DNA of 9,209 bases, taken from IMG/VR virus record IMGVR_UViG_2923307698_000010. One strand, given 5' to 3'. Position numbers and translations under genes: made by a program. The notes beneath the pieces were generated by a model. It searched no databases. It was not told the DNA's origin and saw only the letters and a list, made by a program, of their open reading frames with translations. Position 1 is the first letter of the stretch. The number at the start of each line of letters is the position of its first letter. Below are positions 7,820 to 9,209 of the stretch, one piece after another. The stretch is from a virus (Duplodnaviria; Heunggongvirae; Uroviricota; Caudoviricetes).

Positions 7820-8190
7820 TGGAGCCATACAGCCTCACACTCGATGAGGCCTGTCATTTTCTCAAAATATCCAGACCGACTGCCATTAACTGGATACGCA
7901 CAGGCCGCCTACAGGCAACACGTAAAGATCCAACCAAGCCAAAATCTCCTTACCTCACAACACGGCAAGCTTGCATTGCGGCGCTTCAGTCTCCGCTGCA
8001 TACTGTCCAGGTGAGCGCGGGTGATGGCATAACAGAGGAAAGAAAATGTCACTCTTCCGCAGAAATGAAATATGGTATGCCTCGTATTCGCTCCCGGGCG
8101 GGAAACGAATTAAGGAATCTCTTGGCACAAAGGACAAGCGGCAAGCTCAGGAGTTGCACGACAAGCGAAAAGCAGAACTCTGGCGAGTAG
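7819..8190 (+). CDS. xis: Excisionase-like protein (AlpA/Xis-family HTH)
   Basis: ATG 7819 with a GAGGTGA ribosome-binding site. N-terminus ([26 protein letters not shown]) resembles excisionase/AlpA HTH proteins. The frame stays open to 8190, overlapping the int start by 145 nt; the functional domain is probably the first ~70 aa. Confidence 0.6.
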
Positions 8191-9209
8191 AAAAGCTAGG
8201 GGATTTACCTGATGTCACTTTTGAAGAGGCCTGCCTAAGATGGCTTGAGGAAAAAGCTGATAAAAAATCTCTCGATTCAGATAAAAGCCGGATTGAGTTC
8301 TGGCTTGAACATTTTGAGGGTATAAGGCTTAAAGATATCTCGGAGGCAAAGATTTACTCTGCTGTAAGCAGAATGCATAACAGAAAGACGAAAGAAATAT
8401 GGAAACAGAAAGTTCAGGCCGCCATCAGGAAAGGTAAAGAACCGCCTGTTTATGAACCAAAGCCAGTATCAACTCAGACAAAGGCAAAGCATCTTGCCAT
8501 GATAAAGGCCATTCTCCGTGCTGCAGAACGCGACTGGAAGTGGCTGGAAAAAGCGCCTGTCATCAAGATACCAGCGGTCAGAAACAAGCGAGTCAGATGG
8601 CTGGAAAAGGAGGAAGCAAAACGCCTTATTGATGAGTGCCCCGAACCACTGAAATCTGTCGTCAAGTTTGCGCTGGCAACTGGTCTGAGAAAGTCGAACA
8701 TCATAAATCTGGAATGGCAACAAATCGACATGCAGCGACGAGTTGCCTAGGTGAATCCAGAAGAGAGCAAATCAAACCGCGCCATTGGTGTGGCGCTGAA
8801 CGATACCGCCTGTAAAGTGTTGCGTGATCAAATAGGCAAGCATCACAAATGGGTGTTTGTACATACCAAGGCGGCTAAGCGAGCAGATGGAACATCAACG
8901 CCTGCGGTCAGGAAGATGCGCATCGACAGCAAGACATCATGGCTATCAGCTTGTCGTCGTGCAGGAATTGAAGATTTCCGTTTCCATGACCTCAGACACA
9001 CCTGGGCAAGCTGGCTGATCCAGTCAGGCGTCCCATTATCTGTGCTTCAGGAAATGGGCGGATGGGAGTCCATAGAAATGGTTCGTAGGTATGCTCACCT
9101 TGCGCCTAATCATTTGACAGAGCATGCAAGGAAAATAGACGACATTTTTGGTGATAATGTCCCAAATATGTCCCACTGTGGAATTATGGAGGATATAAAG
9201 AAGGCGTAA
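8046..9209 (+). pseudogene. int: Lambda-family tyrosine integrase (IntR/Rac-like) interrupted by an in-frame TAG at 8748-8750
   Basis: The 8046-8750 and 8751-9209 ORFs share one frame, separated only by TAG. The C-terminal part carries the tyrosine-recombinase motifs (…HDLRHTWAS…, …[15 protein letters not shown]…). Intact homologues, as I remember them, read …QRRVAWVNPEES… with Trp where the TAG sits, which fits a TGG to TAG change. Native stop at 9207-9209. Confidence 0.85.

Follow-up and report, generated by a model that had tools for sequence, protein, structure and literature searches.

The grounded or cryptic prophage is a general concept in the literature (PMC6379469). DLP12 of E. coli K-12 excises in fewer than 1 per 100,000 cells with IntD intact, and the excision of Qin, whose integrase is described as inactive, was undetectable (PMC3105296). 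Phage P22 has an Int protein of the DLP12 type, and the P22 record itself mentions the resemblance to DLP12 Int. In contrast to DLP12 IntD and P22 Int, the gene studied here has an amber codon at Trp235. On both strands of CCWGG, Dcm adds a methyl group to the second C, and the deamination of 5-methylcytosine leads to a T:G mismatch that is usually repaired by Vsr (PMC4924334, PMC2715241). The mechanism by which Dcm sites become hotspots is explained in PMC2715241 and in the work cited there (Lieb 1991).

The gene lies at the end of the window, i.e. the whole stretch of 9,209 nucleotides of DNA that was analysed. The features needed to compare it with these systems are the following:

1-1256, plus strand: IS3-family element (IS1203/IS629-like), with orfA at 1-327 and orfB at 327-1214.
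7819-8190, plus strand: xis, excisionase (HTH_17), with a PF12728 match; full length, with a 145-nt overlap with the start of int.
8046-8747, plus strand: intD codons 1-234, for the arm-binding and core-binding regions and the first ~50 catalytic-domain residues, with Arg215 among them.
8748-8750, plus strand: amber codon TAG replacing Trp235 (TGG), from the comparison with STEC435 and MS7163.
8751-9209, plus strand: intD codons 236-387 and TAA, encoding Lys242, His314, Arg317, Trp340 and Tyr349.

Although the integrase had been proposed to be of the IntR type, its full-length matches are annotated intD and their locus is argU rather than the Rac site. Matches to intD were present in 2,941 of the 5,426 complete E. 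coli genomes, and all 40 E. coli matches listed were chromosomal, the full-length copies among them being annotated as intD. In the best matches, as in every TGG twin (a near-identical sequence with the Trp codon, drawn from a complete genome), a tRNA-Arg gene starts 16 bases beyond the int stop codon, where the window ends. By the annotation and locus of these matches, we conclude that the gene is a DLP12/P22-type integrase gene, probably adjoining argU, and probably not the intR of Rac. It is one base apart from intD of MS7163 and STEC435 (protein WP_001298992.1), i.e. nearly identical to known IntD, and K-12-derived strains have 99.3% DNA identity to it. P22 Int is 73% identical to the restored IntD, the 387-aa protein with Trp at codon 235, and has the same layout of overlapping xis and int. 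An even closer relative comes from the deposited genome of phage Kati (PP925833.1, L053; region 2384-6019), whose integrase is 100% identical to the restored IntD and which has the same yfdQ-yfdR-yfdT module upstream of int. The prophage in the window likewise has a YfdP/YfdQ/YfdR early region as in Kati, compared with the DLP12 remnant in K-12. In Kati, a tRNA-like attP piece directly follows int; it is labelled tRNA-Pro in the record, whereas the chromosomal site is tRNA-Arg.

The intD frame (8046-9209, plus strand) starts with ATG at 8046 and runs through 234 sense codons, the TAG at 8748-8750 and 152 sense codons to the TAA at 9207-9209. The first-pass annotation was therefore correct in describing two segments of 234 and 152 codons that are contiguous in one frame with only the TAG between them. 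The list of open reading frames splits intD in two (8046-8750 and 8751-9209): a GTG abuts the amber codon, giving TAGGTG, and the downstream frame starts at 8751. Restoring Trp yields a 387-aa protein whose single Phage_integrase domain is complete (PF00589, residues 184-355, E 5.5e-47), which places the protein in this family, and its exact sequence occurs on at least 1,000 contigs in the protein collection. Over 7,953 bases of the window (1257-9209), the only difference from E. coli STEC435 is position 8749, where STEC435 has G and the window has A; the 1,164-base gene differs from intD of MS7163 at this same position only. This match but for one base shows that the in-frame arrangement did not arise by chance and confirms the earlier idea of a single TGG to TAG transition.

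The alleles were counted with a 55-mer that carries the variable base at position 28, so that each megablast seed must cover this base. Among the complete genomes, 1,712 had TGG and one had TAG (JNE170426; 1,713 in total); the JNE170426 copy is a RefSeq pseudogene labelled "internal stop". A scan of metagenomes gave 51 TGG and 0 TAG copies.

Intact homologues had been expected to carry Trp at the position of the stop. Indeed, Trp235 does not vary in an alignment of 9 homologues with 40-87% identity to IntD, even at 40%, and neither do Arg215, Lys242, His314, Arg317, Trp340 and Tyr349, i.e. the six residues that were assigned as the catalytic set (R215, K242, H314, R317, W340 and Y349) by alignment to HP1 integrase. 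The TAG at codon 235 parts R215 from the other five, and the set R-K-H-R-(H/W)-Y is not present on a single polypeptide. The stop had been thought to separate an N-terminal from a catalytic segment, which is not the case, as the TAG lies ~50 residues within PF00589 (184-355). The related view that the catalytic domain is not made holds for the loss of five of the six catalytic residues, but Arg215 and ~50 residues of the domain are kept. Since Arg215 alone is left of the catalytic set and the nucleophile Tyr349 is missing, the 234-residue product is predicted to be incapable of recombination, i.e. unable to cleave and rejoin DNA. We conclude that intD of the window is a family member by descent, and that its product is not a complete enzyme.

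With such an integrase, the prophage is predicted to be unable to excise with its own Int, though xis appears intact. The description of the prophage as locked in the chromosome would thus be fair and reasonable, because excision is known to need Int; the att sites fall beyond the ends of the window. Nevertheless, this wording overstates the weight of the amber lesion, because the prophage has another lesion, the IS in a replication-type gene, and its twin has further ones. The right end of the IS interrupts the 3' end of this HTH_36 gene on the minus strand, as the comparison with STEC435 revealed. The IS junction at 1256/1257 was found in no complete E. coli genome, and the open reading frame spanning it was missing from the gene-position index. 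The twin prophage of STEC435 (~43 kb) extends from close to ompT as far as argU; an IS interrupts its tail-assembly gene T, and its terminase gene is frameshifted, lesions that the prophage of the window may share. We conclude that the amber codon is one of several lesions in a decaying prophage. The stretch matching 4919-5230 bears the annotation of a frameshifted hypothetical gene in both STEC435 and RM13322, another small lesion common to this prophage type. As for xis, its product is 77% identical to P22 Xis end to end, and P22 is annotated with the same xis/int overlap. In all twin genomes, PGAP labels xis as "incomplete, missing C-terminus", with a length of just 22 codons, which looks like a systematic annotation artefact. 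A promoter and terminator scan of 7400-9209 revealed nothing relevant to intD beyond the shuffled expectation.

Neither the Dcm-site context of the stop nor the recurrence of the mutation appears in the first-pass annotation. A motif scan of the restored gene showed that intD has just two Dcm sites:

8746-8750, no strand assigned: former Dcm site, CCTGG in the wild type (in GCC TGG GTG) and CCTAG here.
9001-9005, no strand assigned: second Dcm site, CCTGG, spanning Trp320 (TGG at 9003-9005) and intact in the window.

The mutated base 8749 is the G4 of CCTGG, and the change is from G:C to A:T at the inner C:G pair, as is characteristic of a Dcm hotspot. G8749 pairs with the inner C of the bottom-strand CCAGG, which is the target of Dcm. 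From this context, deamination of the 5-methylcytosine on the bottom strand is the most likely cause of G8749A. We propose that this 5-methylcytosine would have deaminated and evaded very-short-patch repair, resulting in G8749A. The change turned the codon of the invariant Trp235 into amber, and translation would end after residue 234. The product would retain the DNA-binding N-terminal part and Arg215 and would lose Lys242, His314, Arg317, Trp340 and Tyr349; the lesion would then be a further step in the decay of a prophage into which an IS had inserted before. The silent partner change C8747T (Ala234, GCC to GCT) was found 0 times in the 1,713 complete genomes and the metagenomes, sets that offer next to no power for this comparison, with only 1 and 0 TAG copies, respectively.

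The TAG allele recurs on different backgrounds. Gene calls for exactly this 234-aa product are present in 63 blocks of public assemblies, and all of the 23 contigs that were read from these 63 blocks (23/23) show the internal TAG with the 152-codon frame behind it; the 152-aa frame is listed separately by the gene callers in all TAG-bearing loci. A P133L variant of the 234-residue product is called in 59 further blocks. At least 7 intD haplotypes carry the TAG, which is accompanied by four different sets of prophage genes (YfdP/YfdQ-type, lambda exo/bet/gam-type, DLP12-remnant, and O/P with SIR2) and occurs in two chromosome arrangements, int-folD and int-fimZ/sfm. The allele and haplotype of the window itself are also present in L010 (100% over 1,797 bases), which is recorded in 4 samples. 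Four TAG lineages could be paired with TGG twins:

Window and STEC435: 7,953 bases aligned, 1 difference (the amber base).
L006 and 04-00955: 8,000 bases aligned, 1 difference (the amber base).
L007 and E143: 7,970 bases aligned, 3 differences (the amber base and 2 distant ones).
L004 and BEC1-S17-ESBL-07: 7,635 bases aligned, the amber base and a 1-base indel, with mismatches at one end of the alignment.

L012, which also has the TAG, differs from the window at 38 sites, compared with 1 for the TGG twin of the window. Since four TAG lineages have near-identical TGG twins, these comparisons support at least four independent origins of the TAG.

Recurrence alone is no proof of a hotspot, since Trp codons outside Dcm sites recur as well (W323 with TAG twice, W164 with TGA twice). 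As controls, the truncated products expected from stops at the other Trp codons were looked up, and the DNA was checked. We counted verified internal stops by haplotype and excluded genes ending at contig ends. Raw contig counts of truncated products proved misleading: most of the apparent truncations among the controls were genes running off the end of a contig, a sequence junction past base 9004 accounted for about half of the 319-aa products, and the large count of the 223-aa product was a single clone. The verified stops were distributed as follows:

W320, Dcm site: G9004A (TAG) in three haplotype groups, in other assemblies (L014-L019).
W164, non-Dcm: TGA on two backgrounds.
W185, non-Dcm: TAG on one.
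W224, non-Dcm: TGA on one (the single large clone).
W269, non-Dcm: TAG on one.
W299, non-Dcm: TAG on one.
W323, non-Dcm: TAG on two backgrounds and TGA on one.

In total, 8-10 verified origins at the 2 Dcm G sites compare with 9 at the 12 non-Dcm Trp G sites, a 5-7-fold ratio of the rates (binomial p about 1e-3 to 1e-4) that comes from modest counts and uneven sampling (for the 234-aa product, 23 of the 63 blocks were read; for the controls, all contigs), the origins resting on haplotypes. The ratio of TAG to TGA was 8-10:0 in the Dcm codons versus 5:4 elsewhere (Fisher p 0.03-0.05). As TAG and TGA yield the same product, the restriction to TAG does not come from selection or gene calling.

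Two observations on the controls concern other events in intD. The W224 TGA (at the base matching 8717 of the window; L022 and L023) was found on one haplotype and in one context in 107 blocks; this int-null lineage has spread widely. For the 319-aa product, 24 contigs were read, of which at least 13 diverge from intD directly after base 9004, and in L020 and L021, both of which were examined, the sequence ends 24-27 bases past the point of divergence. The divergence after 9004 is probably due to the insertion of an IS or a repeat.

Taken together, we consider it probable (about 0.78) that the gene in the window is a pseudogene of intD from an argU lambdoid prophage of E. coli that was inactivated by deamination at a Dcm site, as a recurrent hotspot mutation. 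The recurrence could instead reflect selection for lost excision, i.e. the "grounding" of a useful prophage by the host, and not a mutational bias. Int-null lineages do persist and expand, as seen for the W224 TGA clone with its 107 blocks and for the lineage with P133L and TAG, which has diversified, and grounded prophages are an accepted outcome (PMC6379469). However, selection should favour every nonsense site equally, whereas the two Dcm-linked G positions are enriched 5-7-fold, and the two Dcm codons never show TGA despite the identical product. We regard selection as an unlikely source of the recurrence; it may have helped the alleles to persist, but it leaves the site preference unexplained. 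We find it quite improbable that one ancestral TAG was spread by homologous recombination in short gene-conversion tracts, without repeated mutation. The lambdoid prophages at argU are clearly mosaic, and a short patch would leave no marker in the intD haplotype groups, which are identical over 158-271 bases on each side of 8749. Nevertheless, with four lineages that have TGG twins over ~8 kb, each transfer would have to involve a patch of less than ~430 bases and nothing else. Furthermore, the stop at the second Dcm site is also on several haplotypes, whereas the non-Dcm stop alleles are on 1-2 backgrounds, and recombination would not predict that the change in the Dcm codons is limited to the methylation-linked G (TAG, never TGA).

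Two further explanations concern the reality and the effect of the stop. The TAG might be suspected to be an error of sequencing or assembly in an intact gene, given the single differing base and the IS junction of the window, which is unmatched in other assemblies. We consider this highly improbable, as the same allele and haplotype are found in L010, in 4 samples and at 100% over the 1,797 bases, and the TAG is present in 63 + 59 blocks of independent assemblies, one complete genome among them. It is also hardly credible that an active integrase is still made, whether by read-through or suppression of UAG or by reinitiation at GTG 8751 resulting in a split enzyme. The adjacency of TAG and GTG and the otherwise undamaged 152 codons downstream would fit such a scheme, and reinitiation beside nonsense codons is known in E. 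coli. Against it, no tRNA gene or suppressor was found within the 9,209-nt window, and only a weak GAG precedes the GTG at 8751. Common natural amber suppressors insert Gln, Ser, Tyr or Leu and not Trp, so they would not supply the missing residue. The polypeptide is interrupted in mid-catalytic fold, with loss of an invariant Trp that sits between Arg215 and Lys242, and we regard reinitiation followed by the assembly of the fragments as unlikely. Finally, the rarity of the allele (1/1,713) and the dispersal of other nonsense alleles along the gene fit decay and not a maintained recoding. Mutation at a Dcm hotspot, our preferred reading, would explain that the rare TAG allele arose independently on many backgrounds and that the other Trp codon at a Dcm site behaves alike.

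The integrase pseudogene of this lambdoid prophage is of a known kind and represents ordinary decay (PMC6379469, PMC3105296). For annotation it is a routine pseudogene call, the allele being already marked as an "internal stop" in RefSeq. The novelty, if any, would lie solely in documenting a hotspot that repeatedly inactivates intD in natural E. coli. If our reading is correct, intD offers a clean example from nature of a Dcm hotspot, where one methylated site has repeatedly disabled the integrase of a prophage in unrelated lineages of E. coli, and the second such site of the gene does likewise. For comparative work it is a caution, since identical nonsense alleles in prophage genes may lack common descent, and it implies that host methylation can bias the order in which prophage genes decay. 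The TAG/TGG pairs (the window and STEC435, L006 and 04-00955, L007 and E143) are handy natural controls for studying the loss of Int in relation to prophage stability. A further speculation, to which we give very little credence, is that the two Trp codons at the Dcm sites of intD serve as mutational fuses, where deamination grounds argU prophages and Vsr may favour reversion. Vsr-mediated reversion to TGG, through very-short-patch repair acting on replication errors, is conceivable because the mutant strand reads CTAGG, which is a substrate context for Vsr. If this were true, the competence for excision would be a low-frequency, methylation-driven on/off polymorphism under selection.

Among the known systems, the locus would resemble the defective integrases of the Qin intQ type, where integrase function has likewise been lost in a resident prophage that is stably kept in the chromosome. 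Unlike intQ of this grounded prophage, intD in the window is wild type apart from one clean nonsense change, which suggests that the damage is recent and that a one-base reversion is possible. Amber hotspots in lacI were reportedly described by Coulondre and Miller in 1978. The classical Dcm amber hotspots were obtained in laboratory selections with one strain, whereas the proposed one in intD shows as recurrence among natural isolates in public assemblies. Both nevertheless have the same signature: a change from G:C to A:T at the methylated inner C, a TAG codon as the result, and recurrence at the same site.
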